Below are positions 585 to 61,797 of a DNA stretch of 64,000 bases, piece after piece. The notes under the pieces were generated by a model, which was not told the DNA's origin, did not search any database, and saw nothing but the letters and a program-made list of their open reading frames with translations. The stretch comes from Rhina ancylostomus (taxonomy: Eukaryota), in contig JARFYF010000046.1 of the NCBI GenBank assembly GCA_030265395.1, forward strand, positions 26,855,919 through 26,919,918, in the 5' to 3' direction. How positions within the stretch are numbered: position 1 is the stretch's first letter; the number at the start of each line of letters is the position of its first letter. Position numbers and translations under genes: made by a program.

Positions 585-641
585 CTTGTTGATCACGATA
601 AGTAGGAACACCTGTTAAACATTCGCAAACATCTTCTGGAT
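585..641 (-). CDS. Internal coding exon (57 nt, phase 1-1) of unidentified gene; NPEDVCECLTGVPTYRDQQ
   Basis: Acceptor aaatgtacttttag|AT, donor CAAG|gtattt, stop-free, frame-compatible with the 2869-2940 exon. Confidence 0.65.
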
Positions 642-6332: not shown

Positions 6333-6422
6333 CTATAATGTAGTGACAAAGTGTTTCTACTGGTGTTTCAACTTTAGGTGGTGAGAGTATTATCGGATAT
6401 TTATCGTAATCCATGTCCACAG
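6333..6422 (-). CDS. Internal coding exon (90 nt, phase 1-1); AVDMDYDKYPIILSPPKVETPVETLCHYII
   Basis: Acceptor aaatttgtttcag|CT, donor ATAG|gtatga, within ORF 6322..6582 frame. Confidence 0.75.
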
Positions 6423-9404: not shown

Positions 9405-10689
9405 CTGAAAAAAATATTGGAGAAAAATTGTGATCATCAGTTTATAAACCTTTACACTTAACCTTGTCTGTTAGGGTTAATCAGGAATTTTATTTGATGG
9501 TAAGTGTCCTCAAATAAAATCAAATTAAATAATACCTGATTAATTTTGGAAAGGTATGGGCAAATTCAACCCCTAGTATACCTGCAAGATATTCAGAAGT
9601 TCCATAGAAATCCAACCCTGCATCTGAAAGACATTTAAGGATCACTAAAATCAGCACAATTCTAAACATTTATACTTTGTAATGTTCAGATTTTGTCAAG
9701 ATATTAGGTTGAGTTTATGAAACCGGGCTTTGCACACCAAGGTGTGGTCCTATCCATATTGGCTTAGCCCAATTTTTTGAGGCAAACTCTTCTCTCTCAT
9801 CTGAATGAACCCCTAGCATATGGAACAAGGAAAAAAGCCAGTTTTGCAAGTTATTTGAATGCAAGTTCCAGAACTGAAAGCAATTCTTGCTGCCTGAGAA
9901 CACACAATGAAGGAAGATAACCTGGTTTAGTGCTAAGATGTCCACCTAGGAAATCATAAATGGAGGGGGCTATCAAGAAAATAAATGCAACTACCAGGTC
10001 TACCAGACTTGAAAGCAAAGGAGGAAAGACATCAACAAAGTGCTAAGGTAAATACAGATATATTTATGTACATTTATACTCTCCCTTCACACAAGCCACA
10101 GATTCAATATAAATTTTAATCTGAGGATACCTAGGGAGATGAATGTAAAAACGTGCATTGTACACTGAAACCGATTTATAACGGTGCTGGAATTAGAAGC
10201 TACATGAGATATTTGTAGCTAACAATAAAAATAGATAATCCTTCAAGAATATCAGTAAGAAACATTCAATGGAAGCTATTATGAAGATAACTGGCACAGA
10301 GAGGCTGGTTAACATGACACAAGCATGCTGCCTGTGATGGTTAGACAATTACTAACATCTCCAAAAATGTGGCATGCTTGTAAAGAGAAACAAGAGGATT
10401 GGTAAACCAGATTACAGTACCATTTTGACAAATAGGTAAAAGAGATAGTTTTTACTTTAGAGAAATGACTCTCACTCTTTATGGCAATGAATAGAAAGAC
10501 AATGGAATAACTGAGTTTAGATGAATGTTCATTTATGGTGTGATCTTATCCATGGGAGGCTGGCTTAGNNNNNNNNNNAGATCAACCAGGCAGAAGTATT
10601 CTTCATTTCTCATAAGAGCTGTTACAAATCCTATCAGGAGATACATTTTCAAAACAACAGCAGAATGGAATCATAGAAATTAAGATTAT

Positions 10690-13931: not shown

Positions 13932-13982
13932 CTGCCACGATGTGAGAAGGTCCAAAGAGAGCCAATTCTGCTTTTTCTCCAT
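13932..13982 (-). CDS. Internal coding exon (51 nt, phase 1-1); DGEKAELALFGPSHIVA
   Basis: Acceptor aaatgactttcag|AT, donor GCAG|gtatat, stop-free. Confidence 0.75.
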
Positions 13983-26103: not shown

Positions 26104-26163
26104 CTGAAGAGGAATCAGATGGTTTGGCTGCCAAATTTACATTTGTCTCAGTGGGTTCCATTT
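26104..26163 (-). CDS. Internal coding exon (60 nt, phase 1-1); EMEPTETNVNLAAKPSDSSS
   Basis: Acceptor tatatcttttag|AA, consensus donor CAG|gtaagt. Confidence 0.75.
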
Positions 26164-29659: not shown

Positions 29660-29845
29660 ATATTGCAGATGCTGGAAATCTGAAATAAAAACAGAAAATT
29701 CTGGAAATAATCAGCAGGTCAGGCAGCATCTGTGGAAAGAAAGAGCATGGTTAACATTTCAGATTGATGACCATTCATCAGAATATCTCATCACAGATGA
29801 TCCCTGACCCGCTGTGTATGTCCAGCACTTTGTTTTTGTTTTGTC
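29660..29845 (-). mobile_element. Penelope-like terminal-repeat fragment with inverted arm and hammerhead-like core
   Basis: cagcaggtcaggcagcatctgtg versus cacagatgatccctgacccgctg inverted; minus strand CTGATGA-atggtcatcaatct-GAAA-tgtta at ~29751-29781. Confidence 0.6.
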
Positions 29846-36025: not shown

Positions 36026-37258
36026 AAGACAGTTGTGCCTAGTGCTAATCATCTTCCTTGAGTTCATCCTTTTNNNNNNNNNNTCCATAATCTCCTTTTC
36101 CTTCAGCAGTTCCTCCCCTTGTTTAATACCTCAGGAAAGAGTTGAGATATTCTGTTACATATGTTGTATAGCACATATCAGACAATGAATTATTTGGTAA
36201 GCTGTGGAACATCCCCAAACTGGTGCTGAGAACAGGATCTCTTTTTGAGTAAACTGATAGTACTACCTTTTAAGATCTTCTTGTTAATATGGCTTTCACT
36301 GTTGCAATGCTCAACTAGAATGCTGGAGCACATATTACCATCAGAAGTCAGCAAAAAGGGTGAAGACCCTCAGATCCAAGTTCCAGTCATTGGGGCAGTG
36401 GCAAACCTGAAGTATGTCTGGCAAAGCCAACCCTCTCAGAATAAGTAATTTGAGTTTCCTGTAAGCTTGCCACTNNNNNNNNNNNNNNNNNNNCCATCAT
36501 CATCCACAAATGGAGGGAGTAAAAGCACTTGCAATTCTTGAAAAACCAAGAATTCTGAAGGACAGCCTGCCAACTGAACTCTGGGGAAGACAGTGAGAAC
36601 CAGTTTGCAGAGACTCTTTTTGGAGAGGTTGAAATAGGAGCTTGTGTCCCTCTACACACTGTGAAATCAATCTTTCAAGCGTGATCAATTCTATTTCTGT
36701 TCCTTCAGCATCTCCTACCCTATCTATAGCACCTGATATGCCTGGCCTGAAGGTCCTAATTAAAAAGAGCATCCAGTGGGATGATCATGGAAGTTAATAG
36801 CTTGTAATTGCTGAAGTGGAAATAAGCTTGTAGAAAAGTTGTGGTCATTTGAAGCACCTTTCAAATTGAGCAGTTAGTCTTCAGAGAGCTCTACAGTGGA
36901 CTGCAAAGATTTAACTTTTAGTGCAAATTATTTTTTAAATGGCACTGCGAGTCTGGAAACCTGGTTGATCCATAATTGACCAACACTCACTGGTTGTGTT
37001 AGACCAATGTCACCTCACCAAGTTTCTACTCTTAAATGATGTTGCATAAATACTGACAATAACGGCATGTTGAATATGGTGCATGTATTGTTGGCGTGAA
37101 CATGTACCAAGACTGAAAATGTCCAGCTGTGTTCCTGAAGTGGCATGATGCAACTGAGAAATGGCCATAATCACCATCTCATCAAGGTAAAAACAATTTA
37201 TGCATGATCGCACTACAAAATCTAATATTAAAGTTAAAAACAGGGGACCAATCCATAC

Positions 37259-37309
37259 CAATATTTGGTTCCTCTACCTGAGCAGGAATCATTGGACAGT
37301 GAAGCATTG
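37259..37309 (-). CDS. Probable internal exon (51 nt, phase 1-1); AMLHCPMIPAQVEEPNI
   Basis: Acceptor tttatgtcttcag|CA, donor TTG|gtatgg; flanking intron weakly matches that of exon 52933-52992 (atccaaaggcaact vs atccagaggccatct). Confidence 0.5.
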
Positions 37310-39082
37310 CTGAAGACATAAATCTTCAAAAATGGGTATTAGCAGGAGAAGATACACTAAGCGCATTACAATGTTCATCCAAAGGCAACTACAGCCCATG
37401 TTTGAGTTTATACATGCTCAGATTGGGATGCCCTTTATTGCGATAAACTGGAGACTCAATATCATAGCTTTTCATAGCATGGCTACCTTCAACTTAATAT
37501 CCAAAAACCTCAGAACAGAAATGGAATGAGTAAAATTTTATGAAACACAGATGCTAATGGAATAACATTGCTATGAGTAGTAGAAAATAGCTAGGAGAAT
37601 AAGAAACACATAAGGGGGGTTAAGCTGCAAAGAGTATGATTGTGTGGCAAATATTCTTTGTGATCTAGAGTTAATCTCAAGTATAGGTAACATTTCAATA
37701 TTTATGAAGTGTTTGAAACTATACCCAGGAATTAATCTTTGCTTTATAGGCACAGGACAGTGACTTGTGTATGTTATTACAATTTTCGTTATAAGCCAAT
37801 TTAGGCTGTTGAGCAACGGTAATGCGTGAGAAGAATATGGTCTGGATAAGCATAGAGGCAACCACAGTTGGTAAGTTCACTTGTTATGATGGATGAAAAA
37901 ACAGGCTGGAAAAGACAGCTCCACATAGTTAAGTAGAATATGAAGATGACAAACTTTCAAAAGCTTATTTATTGAGGGAGAACAGAAGCTACAAGTAATC
38001 TCAGACCTCAAAAACTTTCCATATTCAGAGAAAGCAACTGTTAAGATTAGTAAACTATATGCTTGATTTCCCCCTTTTAGCTAAAGGCGAACTGATCAAG
38101 AAACCTTATGCTTCCTAGATCAATGATAAAACAGGAACACCATTTGACGAAAATTTGAGATGACTTTCCCATGGTTACTCATGTACTTCACCCTATTTAG
38201 ATTATATTCAGAAGTCTGTTTAGTTATAACATGTACATATCCGATTCCATGGATTTATTAATGCATACTGGAAATTCGGCTGAGTAATGATGAATTTCAT
38301 GATTATCCTGCCACCTGCACGCACCCTCTAGCATCCCTGCCTGCCCAACTGAATATTTCCTTATGGGGACAACAGAGTGAGCTGAATCTTCTGAACTTCA
38401 TGGATGTCCCAGTGAGATGATGCAGGCTCATACTGCGAGTAAGCGTCAGACAGTGTATATTATCCCTGGAACATTTCACCATATGTCAAAGTTGTTTCTG
38501 GCTCTAAAACCATTAAAATAGATTTAGATATTTTAAATAAAATAAATTTTATTAGAAATGCATTAAAAGCATTAAAATAGTGTCAGATCAGCAACCCTGG
38601 GGTAAAAGTGAAGGCCAAACACTAAAGTTCATCTCCAGGCCTCCCTTCAAGAAGTCACTGCTCTACCACTGGTGTCAGCAATAAGTGGACTGTCAGTTGC
38701 ACCAGCATCTGTCCTTCAAACTGCAGAAACTAAAGTCTAAGACTTCCAGGTGCGCCAACAGCTAATAGCTGGCAGTTCCCCTTCATGTAGCTCCATATAT
38801 TTCACCCTCATTAAATCATTCCTAAAGGTTTCATTTTGTAAAATGCTTTTGCAAACATAATTGATCCTACAAAATTTGCTACTCAACAATTTGATGCAGT
38901 ATCTATAAGCTATATAAGAGGTACACAGTTATTCTTATTCTTAACAAAGAATGTGGATAGAAATATTTACACAATTAATCAATTCTCAGTCAGTACTTCA
39001 AACTGACACCAATGAGAATATTATTCCATGGCCTTGAGAAGAAGATAAGCAATACTAATGACATCACAGTTCAGATTATTTT

Positions 39083-39680
39083 TTCTTCTTCAGTAGTCCA
39101 CTGGAGTTGAGGATGATTTGCTTTCAGTCCAGTTTGGTTGGTTCTGAGGTGGCTGATGAGGACATTGTGAATTCTACAAGCCCTGCCACAGGTGAGGCAG
39201 GAGATGCTGTAGGTGATGGATGGGAGATTATTATGAGAGAGAGTGTACTCCTTCCACTGTTTTCACTGAGTTTCTACAAACTCCCACTGAGACTCAAGAT
39301 TTGCCGTACCATTCCAAATGCTGCTTCTTCATTTTGATTGGTCCTGGGCCAGGGATCCCGAGAATCCAAAAGGATGTCACATTTTCTTCAAGGAGGCTTT
39401 AAGAACATCCTTGAGCATTTTCTCCATCCTCTTTGTACCACCTTCCATGTCTCAGCTGCCACCTCTCTGCAAAGGCAGATATCAGTGATAAAATTCACCA
39501 CTGCCTATAGTGAGCTGGCACAATTGAAAGAAAGAATGTTCAGAGATAAACACCTCAAACCCAGCTAAAAGCTCTTTGTCAACTGGCAGGAGTGATACTT
39601 GCCCTTCTATACACCTCAGAAACATAGACTGCTTACAACGGCACTTCAATGAACTGGGGCAATGTACAGCAACTCTTAAA
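39083..39680. mobile_element. RTE-clade LINE fragment with internal inversion
   Basis: 39083-39430 minus encodes KDVLKASLKK plus the 3' end; 39455-39675 plus encodes an upstream, frameshifted RTE segment (gcagatatcagtgataaaattcaccac ... gcccttctatacacctcagaaaca). Confidence 0.65.
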
Positions 39681-41247
39681 GAGAGATTCTAAGCTTGTCA
39701 ATTATGAAACTCAAAGTATACAAAAGAGTATCAAGTTTGTTTGTACAAGACACCCGGTTAGCTGTCATCATGCTTTTATACTGTAACAGTCAACCATCAC
39801 ACACTTTTTGGCATCTGCACCAAATAATGAAGCAGTAGAGTAGATAGTATCTCCAACACGTGGCTCATAACAACTCCACGAACCCAGCACATCTGCACTA
39901 CATCAAAGTAAAGGCCACCTCTGTAATTATTGAACACACCAACAGATTATTTAAACAAAGAATAAGGATTCTGAACTAGGTTGGGGTCTCCACAGAGTAT
40001 ACTTTATAAAGAATTTCTCACATGCTACAGAAGCACTGTTTTTATCCACGCAACCTTGCCAGATGCAAGACCAATATTGATTTGAGAACAAGGTCAATTT
40101 CAGCCTTCAGTACAGAATCCAAGGTTAGAATCTCCATACCTGACTGAGAGACTGCATGCAACATTAGATTGCTTTGGTATCTTGGCCAATACTTATTTTT
40201 TTATCAGCATGATTAAGACAAGTTTCAGTCTATGTAACTCACTGCTGTTTGAAGTAACTGCATTAGAACTTTGATTTTTGTACAGAAATTTCTGGTGTTT
40301 ACAATTAAGAGGGACTAAGCAAGGACTATGTAGGAGAAACTACCAAGACAACACGCAAGCAGAAAACACAAATTAGATAAAGGAATGCACTTGAAGCATT
40401 GTTATAGTATCATATTTTTTGTATGAATATAACTTCTTTCTAGTATGAAATACAAATGAATCCTAATATTCACAGAAAATGCAAATTACAAATGAAATAA
40501 AATTACCAATCAACTAAATTGAGATCAGTAGTCAATGGAAGAATGGACTATTGAACCAAAAAGTAATGAAGCAGAAGTATCCAGGTGGTATTGGAGGCAC
40601 AGAAAGAAAAAAAGTGGAGAATGGAGGTGACAAAGCCATTGATGAGGGCTTCAACAACAAATTAGCTGATAATTACATGCATCGAGGACTTTACACATTC
40701 AGAGGAAGTCAATACTTAACTTAATAAATTGAACTTTACATTCCCCAAATCAGCAAAAAGATGAACTGATGAAGTAACTCTGTGTCCTCCATTGATGATA
40801 AAACAGGATCATTCCTCAACTCAAACTTGAGATTGTTGTCCATGTTTTTTTTGCCCTGTTTAATTCCCAAATGTATGTTTTGATCTAATTCCTTTGCAGG
40901 CTTCATTGATTCCATGAGATTTGTTGCTCTGTACTGATGACGAGCTAGTACATATAAATTTCCACACAGGAGGACTGAGGTTAAACTTTTACCCAGGCAT
41001 AAAGTGGAAAGAAAGTTAATCATTTTTAGTTCAGTGTGTCAAGTTACAAAATAAGGTAATCACTGCTTGGGAAAGTATGTTAGGAGCTGACTAATGCCCA
41101 TTGCAGAAGGCACAAGACCCCTTAGAATACATTGACTACTGCATGTAGGGAAAATATGATAGATATAAATAAACTCTTGAAAAAATTATATATTACATAC
41201 TTAATAAAATATTGCAGGGTTTTCAGAGAACAATGAATGTCATTTTA

Positions 41248-41593
41248 GAGGAGCGGAGTTGACAACATAATAATGTTCCTTGTTCATGGAGAAATATCAG
41301 TCTATTTTTTTTCTTTTGAGATTTTCTTTTAATTTGTTTCATTTTATTACTTACAATTTTTTTTCAATTTGTTTTTTTATATATAATAAATCTTTTTCTT
41401 TCTCCTTTTGATCTTTTTTTTGTAATATATTCATTTACCAAGAAACCGTGGGGCCTAGAATATATCTTTTATTCTTTATGACTATATATGTCATGATTGT
41501 CCTCCCGATCTCTTTGTATTATATGTATAATTACCTATATTATATGTATTAATCTGTATTAATTTGAAAATTAATAATAAAAAGATTGAAAAA
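41248..41593 (+). mobile_element. T-rich L1/Tx1-like 3'-UTR fragment with 13-bp TSD
   Basis: TSD gaatgtcatttta at 41235-41247 and 41594-41606; ends aataataaaaagattgaaaaa. Confidence 0.7.
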
Positions 41594-41615
41594 GAATGTC
41601 ATTTTAAAATTATAC

Positions 41616-41684
41616 CTGAAGTTAATTGCATGGGAGAGTCAGAGCGCTGTTCACCTTCTATGATTTCCAAAGTATCCTCTGCAT
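41616..41684 (-). CDS. Internal coding exon (69 nt, phase 1-1); DAEDTLEIIEGEQRSDSPMQLTS
   Basis: Acceptor aaatatattttag|ATGCAG, donor CAG|gtataa; paralogous to 52933-52992. Confidence 0.75.
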
Positions 41685-42057
41685 CTAAAATATATTTAAA
41701 ACATTATGTAGCAGCACATGTAGAGGGATTGTAATCTTGCCAACATTTATGTCTATAAAATGATTCACCAGGAAAATAGATTCATGAAAATTTGTGCAAG
41801 CTATCCAGATGCCAAGATGCTTTTGTTCTGAACATGCAATCATCACCCCAAAATTTGACATCTGCACCAAATTATGATGCGAGAAGATAAATAGTATCTC
41901 CAACACATATGGCTGATCTCACAAATCCACAACCCCAGCATATCTATGCTACGTCAAAGCCGAAGGCAATCGGAAAAGTAATTGATCATTCAATAAAATT
42001 ATTCAAACAAAAATTCAGAAGTCTGAAAAGGTCTGGAGACATCCTGCAATATGACTT

Positions 42058-42865
42058 ATGGAGTTTAGTTTGGATAAGTGCAAGGTGTTACATTTTAGGA
42101 AAACAAATGAGGGCAGGACGTTCACAGTGAACGGTAGGGCCTTGGGGAGTGTTGTAGAACAGAGGAATTTAGGAGTACAAGTACATGGTTCCCTGAAAGT
42201 GGCATCACAGGTAGACAGGGTAGCAAAGAAGGCTTTGCATGTTGGCCTTCATCAGTCAGGGCACTGAGTATAGAAGTCGGGATGTTATATTGCCGTTGCA
42301 CAAGACATTAGTGAGGCCACATCTGGAATATTATATTCAATTTTGGTCAGCCTGCAATAAGAAAGATGCCATTAAGCTGGAGAGTGGGCAGGGGAGATTT
42401 ACAAGGATGTTGCCAGGACTTGAGGGATTGAATTATGGAGAGAGGTTGAGCAGACTGGGACTTTATTCATTGGAGCATAGGAGAACAAGTAGTAATCTTA
42501 TAGAGCTGTATGAAATCATGAGGAGCAGAGACAGGGTGAATGCACTCGGTCTTTTTCCCAGGGCTGGGGAATCAAGAACTAGAAGGCATAGGTTTAGGGT
42601 GAAAGAGGAGAGATTTATTAGGAACCTGAGGGGCAACATTTTCACCCAGAGGGTGATCTGTACATGGAACAAGCTACAAGAGGAAATGGTTGAGGCAGCT
42701 ACATTAACAACATTTAAAAGACTCAGGTCAGGTTCATAGATAGGAAAGGTTTAGAGATATATGGGCCAAACATGGGCAAATGGGACTAGCTTAGATGGGT
42801 GTCTTGGTCAGCATGGACCAGATGGGCTGAAGGGCCTGTTTCTGTGCTCTCTGACTCTATGACTC
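42058..42865 (+). mobile_element. CR1 LINE 3' ~800 bp
   Basis: ORFs MEFSLDKCKVLHF and KTLVRPHLEYYIQFWS...RNLRGNIFTQRV; tail ctgactctatgactc. Confidence 0.92.
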
Positions 42866-43324
42866 AAAAAGAATCTCCCATTTGCAACTATGCCCATCCA
42901 GTCAACCTTGCCATAAGAGAAGCCCAGCATTTGGAATGAAACAGAACAGTAGCAGGACTCACTAGTCAAGAAATGCTCATCTGATGTTAAACACAGAGAA
43001 ACAAAGAGACTACTTAAAAGTTTTGCATCGAGAGATGCAAGGGATAAGTTGCTTAGCAATGTGATGCTCATTTTTCTATCCTGAAAATCTACAGGATTCT
43101 CTTTATCAACAATTGTTGTCTGGTCTTCATTGTTCTCTTAATTGAAGCTATTCAAATTCTGCTGTCAATGAAATGTGAATTACTCAGATATAAAATCTGC
43201 TTAAAATGCTATGTTGATAACCCAATTGACAAATGTGATAAATGTGATTAACTCCAAAATTACCTTTTCACTCCATTGTCAATCAAATTACTTATTCTTT
43301 AAGAAATTTCTTAAATACAATTAC

Positions 43325-43351
43325 AGGAAGAAGCTTTTACTGTGCTTTCAC
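43325..43351 (-). pseudogene. Paralogous 27-nt micro-exon (GESTVKASS) with degraded acceptor; likely pseudo-exon or weak exon
   Basis: Flanks homologous to micro-exons 46673 and 54160; acceptor gaaaagacaaatatag lacks a pyrimidine tract; donor T|gtaatt. Confidence 0.45.
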
Positions 43352-43437
43352 CTATATTTGTCTTTTCAAATTTTGTTTTGTTTTTGCATGTTCCCCTATC
43401 CCAGACACTTCATGGTGAAGTTTAGCCTCATAACTGT

Positions 43438-43730
43438 GGCAGGCACGGTAGTGTAGTGGTTAACATAATGCCTTACAGCGCAGGCAATCCGGGTTCAAAT
43501 CCGGCCACTGTCTGTAAGGATTTTGTACGTTCTCCTCGTGTCTGCGTGGGTTTCCTCCAGGTGCTCCAGTTTCCTCCCACATTCCAAAGACGTACAGGTT
43601 TGGAAGTTGTGGGCATGCTAATGTTGGTGCCGGAAACGTAGCGACACTTGTGGGTTGCCCCCAGATCACTACGCAAAAAGATGTATTTCACTATGTTTCG
43701 ATGTGTATGTGACTAATAAAGATATCTTAT
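43438..43730 (+). mobile_element. Relatively young tRNA-derived V-domain SINE
   Basis: A-box tagtgtagtgg, B-box ggttcaaatcc, core gtgggtttcctccaggtgctccagtttcctcccacattccaaagac, CpGs retained, aataaa tail. Confidence 0.85.
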
Positions 43731-43903
43731 GTTACAAGCACCAGCAGCCCTCTTAGCTGACGGATTGCCCTTTTCTTTCCATGTCAGAAGGCCTTGAGGA
43801 CAAAGTCACTCCTCATAGACTTCAACAAAAAATCCCAGCTAGAGTCTCTCAATCTGGCTGAGAAATTGATCTCTGTTAGATTGTCCTGGAGTCTTGGCCA
43901 ATG

Positions 43904-44441
43904 CAGTAGAACTCTGTTAATTCTGCATGCCCAGTCTAGCAGATTTTTATTTCACTTTCAAATTTTAAATTCACTTTTTTCTTGATTTTACACATTAACA
44001 TAATAAATTTTCCAGTGAACCTGTTATATTTCAAGGGAGTATAGGGAACAGAACCAGGTGAGTTTCAAAGAAGTGAGGGAACCTGGGTCGCAATGAATGA
44101 AAGGGGATGCAGGAACGTGAGCCCCAGTTTGTGAATGGCAACCTGAGCCCCAGTGGGTGAAAAGGTGAGAGTTCAGGTCCGGTGCCAAAGTTCATTAGGG
44201 GCAACATGGGAACTAGGGCCCTGGTGTGTGAAAGGGAACATAGGGACCAGGGNNNNNNNNNNNNNNNNNNNNNNNNNNNNNNNAGCACTGGTGTGAGAAA
44301 GGGAGTATGGGAATCTGAGCCCTGGTGTGCTAGATGGAGTGTGGGAACTGAGACCCAGCTATATTGAAGGGAGGATGCGAATCAGCATCCACTGAGCCAG
44401 ATGCTAAACCATCAGGGTTTACAAATTTCAGAGCTTTGTTG
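43904..44441. mobile_element. Tigger/pogo-like MITE containing an internal ~30-bp minisatellite
   Basis: Ends cagtagaactctg / cagagctttgttg-ta; shares tgagccagatgctaaaccatcagg with the copy at 53777-54078. Confidence 0.6.
44030..44390 (+). repeat. Degenerate minisatellite, unit about gggaactgagccctggtgtgtgaaagggagtat
   Basis: About 10 diverged ~30-bp units, with an N gap inside. Confidence 0.7.
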
Positions 44442-45049
44442 TATTTATCTTTTAACCTGCAACATGAACACAAATTTCATGTTACTTAATTCACTATTGT
44501 AGAATAGCATTGGAACTTTAGATATTTGGATCAGCATTCTTATATATTTCACAGTTCATGAAGACTGAGTAATGCCTATGCCAAAGGAACCCTTGGGAAA
44601 AATACCCACCCAAGAAACAACAATTAGATAAAGGAATAGACCTGAAACTTTAAACTAGAATCATAATTTTTGAAATGAGCACAATGGTTGAAAGTATGAA
44701 CTGAAAATGGAGGATATGCTGAAACTACAGAGTATCATCCAAATAAATTTTGAGGTGGACAAAACTGAGATTGATAGTCAATGGAGAAACAGTTATTGCA
44801 TCAAAACAGCAATGAAGTAAAGGCTCCAGCTGGTAACAGAGCCAGGATAGGATTAGAATGGTCAAGTGCAGATGTGAAAACATCATGGATGAGGGCTTTA
44901 CCAGCAAAGTAGATGAGGAAACACAAGCAGTTCCAAACTCCATTTAGTGATAACTTCAGAAGACTCACATGAACCAATTGTTCTGATTAACAAATTGAAA
45001 TTTTGATTCCATATGTCAGTTAAAGGCTGAACTACAGTTACCTAGTTCA

Positions 45050-45260
45050 TAGAGTCCTAGAGAGACAGGCAGTCAGGCCACCCAGTGGGCACCAACCATC
45101 AAAATCCTATTTTTAATTCTAACCTAAACCATTTTATTCTACCCACATTCCATTCAACTATCCCTCCTGTCCAGATGCTACTGCTGACTCACACACAAGA
45201 GGCAATCTACAGTGTCCAATTTACTGACCAACCAGCACATTGTTGGGATGTGAGAGGAAA
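45050..45260 (-). mobile_element. SINE 3' fragment
   Basis: catagagtcctagagag tail; accaaccagcacattgttgggatgtgagaggaaa core on the reverse strand. Confidence 0.6.
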
Positions 45261-46129
45261 GCTGTTGAACAATGCCTATTACAGAATTCAGTTCATACAT
45301 CCTTAACAATGCAATTAACCTCCTCCATGTGAAAAAATACTTGAAAAAGATATAATTAAATTTCATTTGTCAAATCTATATTGTCTCCAATTGTCTTTAA
45401 TGTGACCAGAACCTTGATCTGTGGAGTACAGTATTTCGCTCCCATGCATGCTGTGTTTATGGAAGTGATAATAAAATTGATTCTGATTCTATAAAATAAA
45501 TGTACTCCTCAAAGCATTGTAACATCCACAGAGAATTTGAATATCATTTTGAAACTTTACCCGGAGATAACTGGGAGGCAGGTTCAGTGTTCAAGTCTGC
45601 ATCAGTACTTCCCAAGGTAACCCTTGTACTTAAAATACACATTAAACATCAGCAGTCAACACAATCCTCAGTGTGGTGATACAAAATCCCACAATATCAG
45701 TCTTGGATGACAATCCAAGATTTATTTGTAGAAAAGTTAGGACTGAGTAAATGCTGGCCAGGAATCACTTTGAACTAAGTTGATACTTTGCAGACAACTG
45801 CAAGACATTCTACAGTGCTGTAATGTGGGAAGCAAACTGATGTATGAATCCCTGCTGTTAATTTTACATCCTTTGTTATTTCAAGATCNNNNNNNNNNNN
45901 NNNNNNNNNNNNNNNNNNNNNNNNNNNNNNNNNNNNNNNNNNNNNNNNNNNNNNNNNNNNNNNNNNNNNNNNNNNNNNNNNNNNNNNNCTTATTCAGCAA
46001 TTCTGGCAGGTTGCTTTTTTCTCTATCTGGAAAAGTAATGCTAGCGTCTTTTTCATTATCAGTCCCTGCGATAGTCTTCATTGCTCCCTAATCCTGCATT
46101 GAACAATTCATCTAACTTACTTATTTTCT

Positions 46130-46480
46130 TATTATGGTGCAGGAGGCCACCATTCATCCCAATGGGTCCATGCCAGTTCCCAGCAGGGCAATTCCATCAG
46201 TCCCAGACCTCCAATTACTTCCTTGTATATCTGCAACTTATTCTCTCACATGCTCATCAACTCCCTCGGATTCTTTTGCCATTTACCTACACTAGGGAAA
46301 ATTTAGTGTAGCCAGTTAACTACCAGCACATTTTTGGGATGTGGAAGGAAACCAGAAAACCCAATGGTAACCCATGCAGTCACAGGGAGAATGTGCAAAC
46401 TCCACACAGACAGCACTCAAGGTCAGGATCAAACCTAAACTGCTGGATCAGTAAGGCAGCAACACCAACTGCTGTGTAGC
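46130..46480 (-). mobile_element. tRNA-derived V-domain SINE
   Basis: tttgggatgtggaaggaaaccag ... acccatgcagtcacagggagaatgtgcaaactccacacagacagcac. Confidence 0.8.
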
Positions 46481-46672
46481 TTTGCTGCTCTTAGCACCCA
46501 TAAATTCATTACAAATTTGGAATCTGATGAATACTGTAAAGCGTATTGCAGATCAAAATGACAACTGTGATAAAGCACAACATTTAAGTTCCAACATAAT
46601 CGTATCTTTTCTTTCAATCTTTACTGAATTATCAAACTACTTTTCCTACAAAGGTTTCTTAAATCTAATTAC

Positions 46673-46690
46673 CTTTAGCTGTGTTTTCAT
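46673..46690 (-). CDS. Micro-exon (18 nt, phase 1-1); DENTAK
   Basis: Acceptor tttgtcttttcaacag|AT, donor AAG|gtaatt; paralogous flanks with 54160-54186. Confidence 0.7.
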
Positions 46691-47924
46691 CTGTTGAAAA
46701 AGACAAATATTTAACTTTCCATGTTTTGCTTTCTTTTCTTATTTTCCCTCTCCCAGTATCCTTGAAGTGCCAGCTCACAGTGAAGCTTAGCTCATCAAGC
46801 ACCAGCAACAATCAACATTAAGTGACTGCCTATGTTAGAAGGACGAGGATGAGGTTAACTCCAGAAACTAATAATCTATATAAATAACACGTTATCCAGG
46901 CTGACTTTTTTAAAAACTTTATTTATACAGCACTGTAACAGGTCCTTCCAGTCAAAGAGCCCGCACCATCCAATTACACCCATTACAAGTGGATTAAATT
47001 GGGATTGGGAATTTAGTGAGATGCAGTTATTGCATTAAAAATGACTCAAAGCCCCTTGGATTTCTAATTGTAGCAAAAGCAGCATCAGAGAAGTCATGTA
47101 GAGAGGTGCAAAGTCAAGGGTGAAGACTTCAACAGCAAATTAGTTGAAGAGGAGAAAAGAGTTCTATAATCCATCTGCTGATAAACCTCTATTTAAAATA
47201 TTCTAAATCTAGACATATTGCTCAAGTTGACAAATTAAAGATTTAGTTCCTCATGTTAATTAAAAGCTTAACCTATTAAAAAAAAGTCATCAATAATGAA
47301 ACAGGACCACTTTTTAACTAAAGCTTTATAATGACTTTCCCACGTTTATTCATGCATTTTGGCTTGCTTACTTATCATTTCCAAAAATCTGTTTTATTAA
47401 TATATGTTCAGACATGAATGATTGTTTTCTGTGTTGGCAATTTGACCAAATACATAAATTTCTATGTTAGACAACTGCATTTAACCATGTTCCTGGAAAT
47501 AAATGAAAAAGTATTAACTGATTGTGCAATTATTCCATGCCTGTATTGAAGGTAATAACAAAAAAGACATTATTCATTATCCTCATGCATACTGAAGGTA
47601 TAGTTAAATTATCAAACTAATTAAGAGACCTGGGTTAACAATACAAATTCCTGAATTCAAATCCATCATAAGAGCTGTGGAATTTAATTCCAGATAATCT
47701 TGAGTTTGCAATCGAAACTAGTCTTGGTAATTATGACCACAGAAAACAGCAGATAGTTGTAAAGTCACTAATGCCATTCAAAGAGGAAATCTGCCATTCA
47801 TACCATATCTGATTTGTTTGTGATTCCTGACCCACTCCATGTCATTGGCTAAGTATCCTCTGAAGCCAGTTATACTATCACTAACTCATTAAAACAGAAA
47901 GAATAAAGCTGGACACAACCCACT

Positions 47925-50185
47925 TTGGATCTAGTGATCATAATTCCATTAGTTTTAACATTATTATGGAGAAGGATAGGACTGATCATAGGGTTAAGAT
48001 TCTAAACTGAAAGAAGGCCAGTTTTGAGAGCATCAGAAGGGAGCTGGCAGGGGTGCATTGGGATACATTGTTTTCCAGCAAAAGAGATGCTTGGTAAGTG
48101 GGAGGCCTTCAAAAGTGAAATATTGAGAGCATAGAATCTGTATATTCCTGTTAGAATAAAAGGCAAGGTTAACTGGTTTAGGGAATCTTGGTTATTGGGG
48201 GATATTGAGGACCAGGTAAAGAAAAAGGAGGTGCATTTCTGGTATTGGCAGTTAGGATCAAATGAAGTGCTTAAGGAGTATAAGAAATGCAAGAGAACAT
48301 TGAAGAGAGAAATCAGGAGGGCTAAAAGAGGACATGAGATTACTCTGGCAGACAAGGCAAAAGAGTTTTCTCTTTTAATAAGGGTTTCTGTAGCTAAATT
48401 AAGAACAAAAGGATAGTAAGAGATGAAATTGGTCCTTTTAAAGATTAGCATGGTCATCTATGCATGGATCTGAAAGAGATGGGGGAGATCTTAAATGAAT
48501 TTTTTGCATCTGTATTTACTCGAGAGACAGACACAGAGTCCACAGAACTGTGGAAAAATAGTGAGGCCATGGACTGTATCCGGATTACAGAAGAGGAAGT
48601 GCTTTCTTACCTGAGGTGAATTAGGGTGGATAAATGATGAGGTGTCCCCTTGGACTTCGTGGGAGGCCAGTGTAGAAATTGCAGGGGCCCTGGCAGAAAT
48701 ATTTAGCATGTCCTTAGCCACGGGTAAGGTGCCAGAGGACTGGAGGATATCTAATGTTATTCTGTTGTTTAAGAAAAGCTCTAAGAATAAGCCAGGGAAT
48801 TACTGGCCAGTGAGCCTGATGTCAGTCTTGGATAAATTATTGGAAGGCATTCTGAGGGACAGGATATATAAGTATTTGGATAGACATGGCCTCATTGGGG
48901 ATAGTCAACATGGCTTTGTGCGTGGCAGGTCATGTCTGACCAATCTAATAGCAATTTTCGAGGAGGTTACCAATAAGGTTGATAGGAGAAGGTGGTAGAC
49001 TTTGTCAACATGGATTTTAGCAAGGCCTTTGACAAGGTCCCGCATGGGAGACAGGTCCAGAAGGTTAAGTCGCTTAGCGTTCAGGATGAAGTAGTCAATT
49101 GGATTCAATGTTGGCTTAGCGAGAGAAGCCAGAGAGTGGTAGTAGATGGTTGTCTCTCTGATTGGAGACCTGTGACTTGCGGTGTGCCACAGGGATCAGT
49201 GCTGGGCCTGTTGTTGTTTATCATCCAAATTAATGATTTAGATGATAATGTAGTAAATTAGATCAACAAATTTGCAGATGACACCAAGATTTGGGGTGTA
49301 GTGGACAGCAAGGAAGGCTATCAAAGCTTGCAAAGTGATCTGGACCAGCTAGGAAAATGGGCTGAAAAATGGCAGATGGAATTTAATNNNNNNNNNNNNN
49401 NNNNNNNNNNNNNNNNNNNNNNNNNNNNNNNNNNNNNNNNNNNNNNNNNNNNNNNNNNNNNNNNNNNNNNNNNNNNNNNNNNNNNNNNNNNNNNNNNNNN
49501 NNNNNNNNNNNNNNNNNNNNNNNNNNNNNNNNNNNNNNNNNNNNNNNNNNNNNNNNNNNNNNNNNNNNNNNNNNNNNNNNNNNNNNNNNNNNNNNNNNNN
49601 NNNNNNNNNNNNNNNNNNNNNNNNNNNNNNNNNNNNNNNNNNNNNNNNNNNNNNNNNNNNNNNNNNNNNNNNNNNNNNNNNNNNNNNNNNNNNNNNNNNN
49701 NNNNNNNNNNNNNNNNNNNNNNNNNNNNNNNNNNNNNNNNNNNNNNNNNNNNNNNNNNNNNNNNNNNNNNNNNNNNNNNNNNNNNNNNNNNNNNNNNNNN
49801 NNNNNNNNNNNNNNNNNNNNNNNNNNNNNNNNNNNNNNNNNNNNNNNNNNNNNNNNNNNNNNNNNNNNNNNNNNNNNNNNNNNNNNNNNNNNNNNNNNNN
49901 NNNNNNNNNNNNNNNNNNNNNNNNNNNNNNNNNNNNNNNNNNNNNNNNNNNNNNNNNNNNNNNNNNNNNNNNNNNNNNNNNNNNNNNNNNNNNNNNNNNN
50001 NNNNNNNNNNNNNNNNNNNNNNNNNNNNNNNNNNNNNNNNNNNNNNNNNNNNNNNNNNNNNNNNNNNNNNNNNNNNNNNNNNNNNNNNNNNNNNNNNNNN
50101 NNNNNNNNNNNNNNNNNNNNNNNNNNNNNNNNNNNGGACTAGATGGGCTGAGGGCCTGTTTCTGTGATGTAGTGCTCTATGACTC
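47925..50185 (+). mobile_element. CR1 LINE ORF2 (RT domain) with stops/frameshifts, 3' part in N gap
   Basis: VPEDWRISNVILLFKK...[49 protein letters not shown] (tttgcagatgacaccaag ~49271). Confidence 0.95.
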
Positions 50186-50189
50186 TAAA

Positions 50190-51790
50190 CCTAAATGGAT
50201 CAGCTACATAAATACAATGGCTACAAGAGCAGGCTAACATGGTATGATTGACCTGCCTCATCCCAAATGCTTTCGACCAACTAGAAACATCATATTCTCC
50301 ACTTGCCTGATGGAGTCCAGGTCCAACATCTCTTCAGCTCAACATCATCAAGGTCAAAACAGCCCACATGATTGTCACCCTATAAACTATATATACAAGT
50401 CCTCCATAGTCTACAAATGCCCAATTTATGTACAGCATATACATACGAACGAGCGTTTGGGAGATGGGCAGGATGGATATTGCAAGCTGCTGCGGGACTG
50501 CAGGTGTCTTCTGCCATGTGGCAACTCAGCTTGAGCCATATTTCTGACTTGTGAATGATTCAGATTACAAACAGTTCTCAGGAATAGAATGCTGTTGTAA
50601 CCTGGGGAGGACCTATTAACTCCATCACCAGCACATAGAGTCTGCGGTGCATACCATCTGCAAAATACACTGCAGTTACTTGTCTTGGCTACTCTGACAG
50701 CATCTCCTAGACCAACAATCTTATTATCAAGAAGTACACAGTGAAGAAGGATATCTAAGATTATGACGGGATCAGTGGGCTGAGGAATGGCAGATGGAGT
50801 TTAATTTAGATAAATGCAAGGTGATGCATTTTGGTGAGACAAACCAGGACAGGACTTCCAAATGATAGGGCCCTGAGAGTGTTGAAAAACAGAGAGATCC
50901 AGGGATGCAGGTATATATTTCCTTGAAAATGACGACAGAGATGGACAGAAGGCATTTAGCATGTTTGCCTTCGTCAGTCAGGATACTGAGTACAGGAGTT
51001 GGGATGTCATGTTACAGTTGTATAAGACGTTGGTAATGCAATGTTTGGATTACTGGATACAGTTCTGGACATCCTACTATAGAAAAGATGTCATTAAACT
51101 GGAAAAAGTACAAAAACGTTTATGAGGATGTTACTGGGTATGGAGGGTTTTAGTTATAAGGAGAGGCTGAATAGGCTAGGAGTGTTTCAATGTAGCATAG
51201 AGGCTGAATGGTGACCCTATAAAGGTTTATAAAATCATGAGGGGCATAGAATAGCCACAGTAGGTCACTACTGTATGTATGACCCAGGTAGGGGAGTGCA
51301 AAATTAGAGGGCATAGGTTTAAAGTGGGAGGAGAAATATTTAGAAGTGACCTGAGGGGCAGCTTTTCACACAAAGAATGGTCCATATATGGAACAAGCTG
51401 CCAGAAAAAGTGGTAGAGGTGGGTACAATTATGACACTTAAAAGACATGAACAGGAAAGGTTTAGAGAGATATGGGCCAAACACAAGCAAATGGGACTAG
51501 CTCAGTAAGGCAACTTGGTCAGCATGGACAAGTTGGGCTGAAGGGCCTATTTTCCACACTATATATCTCCATGACTCTATGAATCTGTACATGTGCAGCA
51601 CGGAACTGGGAACACCATTACATTCACTGGTCTTTCGTCCTCGTTGGGTGTAAAGCATGGAATTCCCTGTCCAGCAGCACTTTTGGAGGACACCCACTAT
51701 AAAAGCTAACAGTGGTTTAAGAATTCTCATCACCACCTTTTCAAATGCAATTAGGGATAGCCAATAAATGCTGTCCTTGGAAGGACACCC
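50190..51790 (+). mobile_element. Old LINE 3' fragment interrupted by a CR1 3' segment (~50770-51580)
   Basis: CR1 tggcagatggagtttaatttagataaatgc ... atgactctatga; host tail aattagggatagccaataaatgctg. Confidence 0.75.
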
Positions 51791-51909
51791 AGNNNNNNNN
51801 NNNNNNNNNNNNNNNNNNNNNNNNNNNNNNNNNNNNNNNNNNNNNNNNNNNNNNNNNNNNNNNNNNNNNNNNNNNNNNNNNNNNNNNNNNNNAGGACACC
51901 CAGATTCCT

Positions 51910-52590
51910 AGTTACTCTTATTCTTTTGCCCTTAATATACTTGTAGGATCTCTTTGGACTCTCCCTTCTCAGCCAAAGTTATCTAATGTCCCCATTTTGC
52001 CCTCGTAATTTCCCTCTTGTGTACTCCTACATGCTCTATACTTTTCAAGGGATTCACTTGATCCCAGCTGCCTATATCTGACATATGTCTGCTTTTTTTT
52101 CACCAGAGCCTCAATATCTCTAATCATCCAGAATTCCATACTGATGCCAGATTTGCTCTTCACCCTAACAGGAACAAGCTGTCCTTGAACTCTTGCTATC
52201 TCATGTTTAAAAGCCTTCTACTTGTCAGATATCCCTTTACCTGCAAACAGCCTCCCCCAATCAACTTTTGAAAGTTCCTGTCTAATGGCAGCTAAATTGG
52301 CCTTGTCCCAGTTTTGGACTTTAATATGTGGACCAGTCTTATCCTTTTCCATAACTATTCTAAAACTAATAGAATTATGGTCACTGGTTCCAAAGTGCTC
52401 TCCCACTTACACTTCAGTCACTTGCCCTGCCTCATTTCCCAGGAGGAGGTCAAGTTTTGCCCCTTCTCTAATATGGCCATCTACACATTGATTGAGAATT
52501 TTTTCCTGAATACACTTAACAAATTCCTCACCATCCAAGCCCTTAATACTTCAGCATTCCCAGTTGATATTTGGAAAGTTGAAATCCCAT
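51910..52590 (-). mobile_element. CR1 ORF2 fragment (endonuclease end/linker)
   Basis: GEHFGTSDHNSISFRIVMEKDK...NWDKAN...IRQELSKVDW. Confidence 0.9.
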
Positions 52591-52932
52591 AAATTTATTA
52601 ACCAAAACATTAGTAGTTAAGAAAGCAACCCGGACTTCGCAATTAACAATTAGCAATGCAATTAACTCCTTTCTGTGGGAAAGGACCTGATCTCTCCTCA
52701 TGACACAGCTAAGATCAGGAATCTGGCACGCCAAGGATCATAATTGCAATTTTCTCCCTATTACTTTGTATTTCAAAACTTTTTCGCCCAACTTGCAGTT
52801 CTGCCCATGACAATAAATATAAAATACTTGATAAAGTTATAGTTAAGCTTGCATTATAAAACCTGCTGTATATTACTCAAGAAAGTATGCTAAAGTTTAC
52901 AAAGAATAATGAACATATATTTTCAAATGTAC

Positions 52933-52992
52933 CTGGAGATAAATGTGAAGCAGCTCCAGATTGCATCTCTGTACCTGTTGTAAGCCCTGCAT
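52933..52992 (-). CDS. Internal coding exon (60 nt, phase 1-1); DAGLTTGTEMQSGAASHLSP
   Basis: Acceptor aaatatgttttag|ATGCAG, donor CAG|gtacat. Confidence 0.75.
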
Positions 52993-53432
52993 CTAAAACA
53001 TATTTAACAAATCATAGAGGCACACATAAAAGGAGATTTTAACCTTGCCAGCATTAATATCCAGAGGCCATCTGATGAGTTTATGAAAAATATTCAGGCA
53101 GCTGTCACAATGCATTTATCCTGCAGTATTCAAACCAATATTTGATCTTTCCCCCTTATGATGGCACTGGGGTCCAATTAAGATCGATGTGACTCAAGAC
53201 ACTTCCAATGTTACCTCTCCAATTCCAAGTTACACGGGTATTATTAACAANNNNNNNNNNNNNNNNNNNNTTGAGGTTCAGTAAAAGGTTCAGTTGTATG
53301 TACAAGGTTGGGGGCTGCCCACAATATGCCTGACAAGGAATTTTCGACAGAGAACAGGATGCTGTGTCCATTCACACTTAAATGTCATGCAGAGATTAGC
53401 ATTTGGAAGAAAAAGAACCACAGCAGTGTGCA

Positions 53433-53592
53433 ACACACACAAATGCTGGAGGAACTCAGCAGGTCAGGCAGCTGAGACCCAAAACGTTGACTGTTTATTT
53501 CCCTCCGTCGATGTTGCCTGACCTGCTGAGTTCCTCCAGCATTTTGTGTTTGTTGCTCCAGATTCCAGCAACTGCAGAATCACTTGTGCCTT
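53433..53592. mobile_element. Penelope-type hairpin insertion with 14-bp TSD
   Basis: TSD cacagcagtgtgca at 53419-53432 and 53593-53606; inverted arms atgctggaggaactcagcaggtcaggca / tgcctgacctgctgagttcctccagcat. Confidence 0.75.
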
Positions 53593-53776
53593 CACAGCAG
53601 TGTGCACTGGTTAAGGTTCACCAGGCTGAACGCATGGACAAGACAATAGGAGGAGAACTACTCAACTTCAATGTTAATGACATGCTAACAAAGCAGATTC
53701 AGAATCTGGTTAAAAAAACACGCTGAAGAACAAAATGACAAATGTGATAAGGGAGTCACTTATTTAATTCCCAAGA

Positions 53777-54078
53777 CAATAAAACTCTGATAACCTACTA
53801 CCTTTGGGTCTTTGTGGTACCAGACTGGCAGATTTTCCGATTATTGGATATTATCCCATCAAACTTTGAAGATGTTATGCAGTGGAATAATAAATAAATA
53901 TTACACAATGAAATAACAGTTTCTAGTAAAATAAATAAACATTCTACAGTAGTAAAATGAAGATTCTGGTGATCCTGGTGAGTTGAAAGGGAGCATGGGA
54001 CATGGTGCCTCAGTGAGCTAGATGCCGAACCATCAGGATTTCCAAATAATTGCTGAGTGGACTATCAGAGTTTTACTG
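53777..54078. mobile_element. Tigger/pogo-like MITE (~300 bp)
   Basis: TIRs caataaaactctgataacc / ggactatcagagttttactg. Confidence 0.7.
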
Positions 54079-54159
54079 AAATAATTACCTTTTATTTATT
54101 TTTCATTCAATTTTCAGTCAAACTACTTTTCTTATGAGAACTTTCTTAAATATAATTAC

Positions 54160-54186
54160 CAGAATAAGATTTATTAACGACTTCAT
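54160..54186 (-). CDS. Micro-exon (27 nt, phase 1-1); DEVVNKSYS
   Basis: Acceptor tttgtctttcttttaacag|AT, donor CTG|gtaatt. Confidence 0.72.
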
Positions 54187-54234
54187 CTGTTAAAAGAAAG
54201 ACAAACATGTAAGTTTTCAACATTTAAAAGGCCC

Positions 54235-54470
54235 ACAATTGCAGATGCTAGAAATCAGAAATGAAAACAGAATTCCAGAAACATTAAGGAGCATCTATGG
54301 AGAGAGAAAGAGAGACAACATTTCCAGTTGATGACTCTTCACCAGAACTTAGAAAAACTAAAGGTCAAACATGTCCTAAGTTGCAGAGAGGGGTGGAATG
54401 AAGAAGAAAAAAACAAATATCTTTGGAAGAGTGAAGACCAGAAGAGACTGAATGGCATAAGGCTTGATAA
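54235..54470 (-). mobile_element. Degenerate Penelope-like terminal-repeat fragment
   Basis: tgcagatgctagaaatcagaaat...; minus strand CTGGTGA-agagtcatcaactg-GAAA-tgtt. Confidence 0.5.
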
Positions 54471-55585
54471 TTGCAGATGATGTCTGGAGGTAATGCAAAT
54501 TGGGTGAATGTTAACAGAGCAGAAAAGAAAAAAGAAAAAAAAGCCTAAACAGCGAGATACAAACTGAATATAAAAATAAATAATTAAAAGGATACTTGGT
54601 GCATAAATAATTCAAGGTAAAGAATTTGGATGCTTCTTAATATATTTCATGTATATTACCAGAAATGTGTATACTTGCGTTGCTATCTGAAACATAAAAT
54701 TAGAAATAACTGTACGTTACATATATTAACATTAAGACTTAAAATGTGTACAATGACAAATCAGGTATTATCTCACTTCATAACAAGAAAATAGAACATC
54801 TACACTGCTTAAAAAAATGTGATAATGATGAGGAAAAGTCAGTTAGGGAAGCCACATTTTATTCCTAAAATGTTTATCGAAAGAAAGTTCAAACTTCTAA
54901 AGCGCATTTCATTGGGTTGACATTCTTGTTGGGGACATGTACCGAGTTTTTGGCAGGTAGGCTTTGTCTACGAGCTGCCTCCCCCAACTTAAAAATAAAT
55001 AATTTGGTAAAAGACCTTCTTTTCTGCATATCTAAAAGTAAAAATTTCCAAAATCAGTTAGATTGGAGTCCACAAGATGAAGGAGCCACACCAGGTTCCT
55101 GAGTATCTTGCACACATCTAGAGAAACTTTTTTTTATTGTGAACCAGCTCCAAATTAAATTAATAGAATGGAATTATTATTCCAAGCTGGTCTGGAAGTT
55201 GGTTTGGTTGTCACACAAGTGTGGTCTATCACTTGCTGTATTAGTGGAAATCCTGCTAGGGCAGAAATAAAACACTCATTCTGGGTTACTTCATCCGAAG
55301 ATGGTGCATGTATTAGCACTCAGAAACAAGGCATGTGTCACCTATTTAAATCTGTGTTTGAGCCAACAATGAAATCCTATTAACTGGCCTAAGACCTTCT
55401 CTTCTGCATTTCCTCTTTTATGTTGGAACAACCAATGAAATGATTTCAAGAGTGTTGGATAATTTATCAGATAACACAGATTCTGGAAACAGGTAATTTA
55501 TTAAAATTCCTTACCTGCCACTGGGAAGATTCAATTATTCTTTAAACCCACCCAGCAACTGCCACTTGTAAAAGGCATTATTTAC

Positions 55586-55606
55586 CTGACACAGATAAGC
55601 GAACTC
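55586..55606 (-). CDS. Micro-exon (21 nt, phase 1-1); GVRLSVS
   Basis: Acceptor ttttatgtatttttcag|GA, donor CAG|gtaaat. Confidence 0.6.
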
Positions 55607-60816: not shown

Positions 60817-61731
60817 NNNNNNNNNNNNNNNNNNNNNNNNNNNNNNNNNNNNNNNNNNNNNNNNNNNNNNNNNNNNNNNNNNNNNNNNNNNNNNNNNNNN
60901 NNNNNNNNNNNNNNNNNNNNNNNNNNNNNNNNNNNNNNNNNNNNNNNNNNNNNNNNNNNNNNNNNNNNNNNNNNNNNNNNNNNNNNNNNNNNNNNNNNNN
61001 NNNNNNNNNNNNNNNNNNNNNNNNNNNNNNNNNNNNNNNNNNNNNNNNNNNNNNNNNNNNNNNNNNNNNNNNNNNNNNNNNNNNNNNNNNNNNNNNNNNN
61101 NNNNNNNNNNNNNNNNNNNNNNNNNNNNNNNNNNNNNNNNNNNNNNNNNNNNNNNNNNNNNNNNNNNNNNNNNNNNNNNNNNNNNNNNNNNNNNNNNNNN
61201 NNNNNNNNNNNNNNNNNNNNNNNNNNNNNNNNNNNNNNNNNNNNNNNNNNNNNNNNNNNNNNNNNNNNNNNNNNNNNNNNNNNNNNNNNNNNNNNNNNNN
61301 NNNNNNNNNNNNNNNNNNNNNNNNNNNNNNNNNNNNNNNNNNNNNNNNNNNNNNNNNNNNNNNNNNNNNNNNNNNNNNNNNNNNNNNNNNNNNNNNNNNN
61401 NNNNNNNNNNNNNNNNNNNNNNNNNNNNNNNNNNNNNNNNNNNNNNNNNNNNNNNNNNNNNNNNNNNNNNNNNNNNNNNNNNNNNNNNNNNNNNNNNNNN
61501 NNNNNNNNNNNNNNNNNNNNNNNNNACACAAAATTTGCTGACCAACAGATTCAATTATGCAGCAGCATAAAGAATCGCAGATTGTTGCAAAATTCTTCAC
61601 TGTCAATGAATTAATTTTATGTTCTATAACTACTTTGTAATATGGCAGCCAAACTGGGCAGAAACAAAATCAAACATATGATCAGATAATAACATTTTAA
61701 TGAAATAAAATTACCAATATGGACAATATAC

Positions 61732-61797
61732 CTGATGTCGAAGGCAAAGATTGTTCTTTCAAAACCAGTGACCCTTTTCTCTGACTAACATCCTCAT
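61732..61797 (-). CDS. Internal coding exon (66 nt, phase 1-1); DEDVSQRKGSLVLKEQSLPSTS
   Basis: Acceptor tatctcatatttcag|AT, donor CAG|gtatat, stop-free. Confidence 0.72.

Follow-up and report, generated by a model that had tools for sequence, protein, structure and literature searches.

Tandem copying of a two-exon cassette, and probable loss of most extra copies, in a candidate minus-strand gene of Rhina ancylostomus

Related systems and the locus

Internal tandem duplication of symmetric exons has been described as a source of disordered proteins, with calpastatin and MAP2 as class 1,1 examples (Schad et al. 2013, PMC3632108). Pseudogenic duplicated exons, defined by stops and frameshifts, are known from mammalian genes (Morais and Harrison 2009, PMC2718932), the DAZ exon 7 arrays are of recent origin, with copy numbers that differ from person to person (bioRxiv 10.64898/2026.06.03.729890), and the elasmobranch scpp and sparc-L genes have first three coding introns in phase 0, together with SxE sites and a PDYXXPXX repeat (PMC9122587). 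Here, we analyze a 64,000-nucleotide (nt) stretch of the Rhina ancylostomus genome (hereafter the window; assembly GCA_030265395.1, contig JARFYF010000046.1, positions 26,855,919 to 26,919,918 of the forward strand). We consider it likely that this stretch contains a minus-strand gene with short phase 1-1 exons, in which a cassette of two such exons, a micro-exon of 18-27 nt (D) and an exon of 60-69 nt (A), was copied in tandem and most of the extra copies were subsequently lost.

With the symmetric-exon disordered proteins the locus shares a run of class 1-1 exons, homology among exons and a low-complexity acidic product, and it would be a new instance of that known mode of duplication in disordered regions; it differs in that the introns of the youngest units still show their homology and the positions of dead copies can be traced. 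The mechanism is not new, and the locus reveals little about function. Calpastatin differs further, as two calpain-inhibitor subdomain patterns had no match here, and 10 exon frames gave no such Pfam match. Like the mammalian pseudogenic exons, duplicated exons decay here within a gene, but both suspect copies have open frames and are disabled at the 3' splice site. The DAZ exon 7 array, with a unit of ~2.4 kb and many pseudo-exons, is similar in that exon and intron were amplified in tandem within one gene and in that a long interspersed element (LINE) lies inside the array, whereas the units here are ~34% diverged, carry two exons each and are few. Likewise, the elasmobranch scpp and sparc-L genes encode acidic, fast-diverging shark or ray proteins that arose via local exon duplication; however, all candidate introns here are in phase 1, and the 196 amino acids (aa) encoded by our candidate exons contain one SxE and no PDYxxP. 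Identity with an scpp gene was rejected because of the phase 0 introns described there.

Tandem copies of the cassette

A first, sequence-only reading had proposed repeated duplication of 2-5 kb cassettes between 37250 and 54250, based on motifs recurring among introns. By exact motif search, seven of the eight motifs searched were present everywhere they had been placed (i.e., gcatctaaaa(t/c)atattta at 41681 and 52989; cttgcca(a/g)catt at 41736 and 53044; tttcttaaat at 43307, 46655 and 54142; catctgcaccaaat at 39812 and 41859; atagtatctccaacac at 39844 and 41891; aattagataaaggaat at 40371 and 44622; and atgactttccc at 38160 and 47331), and caaactacttt was exact at two of three places (46633 and 54119), with a variant at the third. 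Self-comparison of the window confirmed that the motifs are parts of longer, same-strand, collinear off-diagonals. More specifically, after masking of transposon pieces, 200-nt windows scored up to 146, versus a maximum of 48 in 19 shuffled windows, and nine pairs of intron blocks were 66% identical (1454/2193), versus 53 ± 4% for 137 random pairs run through the identical aligner. Paralogous non-transposon sequence amounts to 5264 bases in a 16289-base span (37931-54219), which does not reach down to the 37250 first proposed.

The offsets between copies (2.05, 2.23, 2.68, 3.34, 3.95 and 4.25 kb, with one of 7.5 kb where LINE debris and gaps intervene) support tandem intragenic duplication of cassettes, at 2-4 kb. 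Most blocks recur 3-4 times, rather than the 3-5 first reported, one occurs twice, and five copies are reached only by an overlapping segment of blocks F and G, one copy of which is weak. Profiles derived from the blocks recovered more copies only inside the cluster (null scores ≤11 bits), namely, block B at 53170-53018 (39.4 bits, E 1e-11, with a profile built from the other two B copies) and the F/G segment at 45033-44871 (29 bits) and 38090-37957 (17 bits). These alignments show that a 2-4 kb cassette with micro-exon D and exon A has been copied head to tail several times, for which unequal crossing-over would be the cause. Exon identities and flank identities disagree on the order of the duplications.

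In gene direction, unit 1 reads D, C, B, A and is separated from unit 2 by LINE fragments and gaps (~4.7 kb); unit 2 reads G, F, D, C, A; unit 3 reads F, E, D, C, LINE, B, A; and unit 4 reads G, F, E, B, followed by two partial F/G copies down to 37931, below which self-comparison and profiles found no exon homology (Table 1). The A copy of unit 2 had been missed by the first reading, and the DE-x-x-x-K signature that it ascribed to the micro-exon applies to two of three copies (54186 and 46690), the copy at 43325 reading G-E behind a broken acceptor. A fourth A exon near 39.6 kb was rejected, as it appeared in a forced alignment only, has CT in place of the donor GT and was missed by the A profile; hidden D copies near 44.5 kb and 40.3 kb were rejected as not significant apart from one block.

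The window is AT-rich (~37% GC) and gapped, with LINE and short interspersed element (SINE) debris on both strands. In the self-comparison each transposon piece sits in a single unit only, which suggests that retroposons landed there after the duplications. Blocks G and B (38792-39975 versus 40839-42027) share an offset of 2044-2051 with 670 nt between them that lack homology, and the equality is possibly a coincidence. Unit 3 contains a 34-nt minisatellite (44030-44385); a single stretch like it is found in unit 1 at ~53975-54010, beside the block common to 44367-44454 and 53987-54094.

Table 1. Candidate exons, intron blocks and transposon fragments of the window, in gene direction. Short names give positions in kb; chain numbers give the order in the 12-exon chain.
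Feature	Coordinates	Strand	Chain no.	Short name	Details
Candidate exon, upstream of cluster	61732..61797	-	1	E61.8	66 nt, phase 1-1; splice scan, acceptor pattern; paralogy to A not significant
Candidate micro-exon	55586..55606	-	2	E55.6	21 nt, phase 1-1; top combined minus-strand splice score
Candidate micro-exon	54660..54686	-	3	E54.7	27 nt, phase 1-1; length and 3' end as D54.2; flank homology not significant
Micro-exon D, unit 1	54160..54186	-	4	D54.2	27 nt, splice sites intact, DEVVNKSYS
Intron block C, unit 1	53658..53780	.			Copies 46508-46600, 43148-43253
Intron block B, unit 1	53015..53170	.			Copies 41706-42027, 39662-39975
Exon A, unit 1	52933..52992	-	5	A52.9	60 nt, splice sites intact; 9 nt shorter than other A copies
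LINE fragments plus assembly gaps, separating units 1 and 2	47900..52600 (ends approximate)	.			RVT_1, E 3e-13
Intron blocks F and G, unit 2	46967..47493	.			Self-comparison, profiles
Micro-exon D, unit 2	46673..46690	-	6		18 nt, splice sites intact, DENTAK; 9 nt shorter than other D copies
Exon A, unit 2	45561..45629	-		A45.6	69 nt, frame open, donor kept, acceptor AA not AG; probable pseudo-exon
Intron blocks E and F, unit 3	44367..45033	.			Copy 40190-40767; 44367-44454 also matches 53987-54094
Micro-exon D, unit 3	43325..43351	-		D43.3	27 nt, pyrimidine tract deleted, donor -1 T; probable pseudo-exon
LINE 3' fragment, unit 3 only	42050..42870	+			Self-comparison
Exon A, unit 3	41616..41684	-	7	A41.7	69 nt, splice sites intact
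Unit 4, blocks G, F, E, B	39662..41035	.			Without C or D; no recognisable A below B
Two partial F/G copies	37931..38994	.			37931-38298 clear, 38792-38994 weak
Candidate exon	26104..26163	-	8	E26.1	60 nt, phase 1-1, consensus donor
Candidate exon, older A-type paralogue	13932..13982	-	9	E13.9	51 nt
Candidate exon, older A-type paralogue	9582..9623	-	10	E9.6	42 nt
Candidate exon	6333..6422	-	11	E6.4	90 nt, phase 1-1; acceptor like A (17/27), wider homology not significant
Candidate exon, older A-type paralogue	585..641	-	12		57 nt

The exon chain and the fate of its copies

The window would cover the middle part of a single minus-strand gene, and the exons would code for a spacer that is acidic, rich in Ser/Thr and probably disordered. 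In all 12 chained candidates, from 61797 down to 641, the length is a multiple of 3 and phase 1 is free of stops, and the other frames contain 8 and 19 stops. Splice-site scans also yield decoys (25 candidates on the minus strand and 18 on the plus strand), and single candidates are uncertain; the shared junctions are independent support for the putative chain. A pattern for exon starts, drawn after seeing them, gave six matches, all on the minus strand at candidate starts, versus 0.73 expected, and pairwise acceptor identities of 17-22 of 27 were reached by at most 0.035% of decoy pairs. A further candidate at 37309-37259 was left out, its acceptor being unlike all others (3-10 of 27), and no long non-transposon open reading frame stands out among the 66 listed.

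Judged by local alignment and acceptor identity, the exons at 13982, 9623 and 641 are A-type paralogues of greater age, the module having been copied earlier as well. Against shuffled sequence, exons 13982 and 9623 match each other (local score 62, shuffle maximum 37), exon 641 matches A41.7 (69, shuffle maximum 46) and exon 9623 matches A52.9 (43, shuffle maximum 34), and the acceptor identity of 19/27 found for A52.9-E9.6 and E13.9-E9.6 was reached by 0.01% of 20000 decoy pairs; five other exon-region comparisons and one tie were not significant in the same test. These paralogues, which an older wave of the same process would have left, lie far outside the coordinates first proposed, and only homology near the junctions survives.

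By their splice sites, two of three recognisable A copies and two of three recognisable D copies look intact. A45.6 aligns gap-free to A41.7, with an open frame and the donor kept, and reads AA at the position of the acceptor AG in the others; the next AG would give 68 nt, out of frame, and the sole in-frame AG, which is weak and stands behind a purine-rich tract, would give a 36-nt exon (45596-45561). D43.3 is missing ~14-16 nt, which in the other two D copies make up the pyrimidine tract, the pyrimidine content upstream of it being 27% versus 73% and 80%, and T occupies position -1 of its donor. A micro-inversion of this tract was rejected, as the alignment reveals a shorter region, i.e., a deletion. 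The D acceptor region (46690-46725, 54186-54225 and 43351-43375) is a quasi-palindrome with a purine-rich arm just upstream of the pyrimidine tract, and D43.3 still has that arm; a hairpin in this region may have favoured the deletion.

Since neither exon shifts the frame, the splicing-in or loss of any D or A copy would be harmless to it. Most extra copies would have died, in different ways, one A through loss of its acceptor AG, the neighbouring D through deletion of its pyrimidine tract and the rest by deletion or decay. The splice lesions are present in the sequence, and from them we infer that A45.6 and D43.3 are skipped; since the two are adjacent, skipping both would join D of unit 2 to A of unit 3. 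With broken 3' splice sites in two of six recognisable exon copies and no recognisable exon in the downstream units, the amplification as visible today leaves a net gain of about one D+A pair (87 nt) in coding sequence, and the proposal that the gene grew by repeated in-frame duplication holds only in part.

An alternative-splicing array, in which the inclusion of A and D variants, weak-site copies too, is regulated or mutually exclusive and so varies the spacer, would agree with the open frame, GT donor, conserved second codon positions and weak in-frame AG (36 nt) of A45.6, with the AG, GT and open 27-nt frame kept by D43.3, and with the frame neutrality of all exons. We nevertheless regard it as improbable, because it is precisely the 3' splice signals that the lesions strike, the closest AG of A45.6 leads out of frame at 68 nt, short open frames are expected by chance, and the downstream units are exonless.

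There is modest evidence that the frame is kept among exon copies: their length differences number two, both of 9 nt, intron indels in multiples of three number 6 of 58, and the chance of no frameshifting exon indel is 0.04-0.16, depending on what is counted. Intact exon pairs are 58% identical (45/78) versus 60% for position-matched flanks (103/173, p=0.78), so the claim that exons are at least as diverged as introns holds in the form of equality. The proportions of nonsynonymous and synonymous differences (pN 0.47 and pS 0.41, p=0.78 over 24 codons, with low power) leave positive selection, one half of the earlier suggestion, unsupported, while relaxed amino-acid constraint, its other half, fits. 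Residues drift in a neutral-looking manner within a kept frame, and positive selection is neither shown nor excluded by the data. In the surviving copies, frame and splice sites are retained while the encoded residues change at about the neutral rate, so that selection would act on length, charge and frame rather than on sequence.

It is quite unlikely that positive selection diversifies the exons in the manner of immune or gamete-recognition proteins. Identity is slightly lower between intact exon pairs (58%) than between deep intron blocks (66%), the point estimate of nonsynonymous over synonymous divergence (dN/dS) is 0.73/0.62 for A52.9 versus A41.7, and no homologue was found in large protein sets. 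However, neither difference is significant (p=0.12 and p=0.78, respectively), the intron blocks were picked for alignability and are hence biased, the exons are no faster than their position-matched flanks, and query length explains the absence of protein matches. We give as little credence to the idea that the whole gene or this part of it is non-functional, its exon-like pieces being neutrally decaying relics. It would account for dN close to dS, for changes spread evenly over codon positions between A52.9 and A41.7 (8, 9 and 9) and for the locus being without database support, but with ~0.2 substitutions per site in each lineage, four copies still have AG, GT and their frame, and their indels are in frame, and the older paralogues retain splice junctions after their intron homology is gone. 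That the blocks represent not gene cassettes but an ancient interspersed repeat, a coding element in decay or a non-coding RNA in tandem, as a purine-rich E/F segment on the plus strand with short protein-like stretches might suggest, is hardly credible, given that they keep one orientation and one order within 37.9-54.2 kb with none elsewhere in the window above the null, that LINE and SINE pieces by contrast lie on both strands throughout, and that neither Pfam (eight read-through frames, at cut-off) nor Rfam (36-57 kb, at gathering score) returned a family, no coding or RNA content being found in the intron blocks.

Several points weigh against the reading as a gene that copied its cassette and lost most copies. 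The open chain is partly circular, as candidates were chosen for phase 1 openness and AG/GT ends, and exons of such length are stop-free by chance 55-89% of the time. A-type acceptors are just 60% pyrimidine, and the paralogy of E61.8, E55.6, E54.7, E26.1 and E6.4 was not significant in local alignments against shuffles. The exons are predicted from sequence, and assembly gaps (999 N in the span) could hide others. Finally, A45.6 and A52.9 differ at 2 of 19 second codon positions versus 8 and 8 at the others, which suggests that A45.6 lost its coding role late or remains in occasional use.

If the favoured reading, cassette copying followed by loss, is true, the locus presents the birth and death of exons within one gene as a compact natural series, holding intact copies, copies newly disabled at the 3' splice site, erased copies and older copies recognisable by junction only. 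It would then be a handy test case for length change of disordered spacers, in which slow sequence change keeps the record readable. The pedigree mutation rate of the epaulette shark is 7e-10 per generation (PMC10587355); dating by this rate gave ~3e8 generations and was rejected as not credible, and no absolute age is claimed.

Putative product and other features of the window

The chain encodes 196 aa, with 20% S+T, 19% D+E and 6% K+R, and contains no hydrophobic segment (highest 19-residue hydropathy, 0.84); from this composition, the encoded region is probably disordered. Our guess, based on exon class and composition, is a glycosylated stalk or linker of a secreted or membrane protein, which we very slightly prefer to an intracellular disordered region. 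A bolder and rather doubtful extension is that this is an undescribed cartilaginous-fish gene, the whole spacer of which arose in two or more waves from a single phase-1 exon module and still gains and loses exons; related species would then differ in their live A and D copies, and protein length and surface would vary by lineage, possibly under host-pathogen or gamete-recognition selection.

Protein searches used single exons of 14-30 real residues as queries, so their negatives are weak. For the frame of exon 6422, a word-index search found no candidate with three common words among proteins of 75-2000 aa, a stacked alignment of eight exon frames had 0 of 870 candidates at E<=10 (proteins up to 2000 aa), and Pfam gave nothing at cut-off for 10 exon frames. 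A phmmer search of exon 6422 against 1.84 billion representatives returned one match, P0001 (E 1.6e-5), which we rejected as a chance, repeat-inflated hit, since it is a singleton repeat protein that matches that exon alone (11/20) and has one relative among 792 candidates. P0001, which has no Pfam family at cut-off, shares a short acidic aromatic repeat motif with P0002, and both are probably unrelated to this gene. A metagenome scan with the acceptor pattern gave 116 loci, the longest match to the window (51 nt) being chance. For 52400-56000, 13 sequencing runs from 5 organisms in 6 studies were listed, with shares of 0.88, 0.47, 0.21 and down to 0.08, none of them given as RNA. A literature search, limited by the want of a gene name, found no paper on this locus, nor one on shark complement factor I, which had been considered as a candidate.

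Elsewhere in the window, a 77-nt perfect inverted duplicate (16321-16397 and 16648-16724) flanks a 100-N gap and is probably a scaffolding artefact. At 19356-19706 lies a local tandem duplicate with a period of ~139 nt, 65-67% identical and not transposon-like. A 20-nt exact AT-rich match links 40491-40510 with 61699-61718 (E 0.02-0.04) and may be chance; its second copy sits immediately downstream of exon 61797-61732. A short repeat that contains inverted arms recurs at 53430-53594, 63370-63454, 12680-12790 and 29650-29840, and the copy at 53.4 kb has sub-threshold Rfam hairpin matches.

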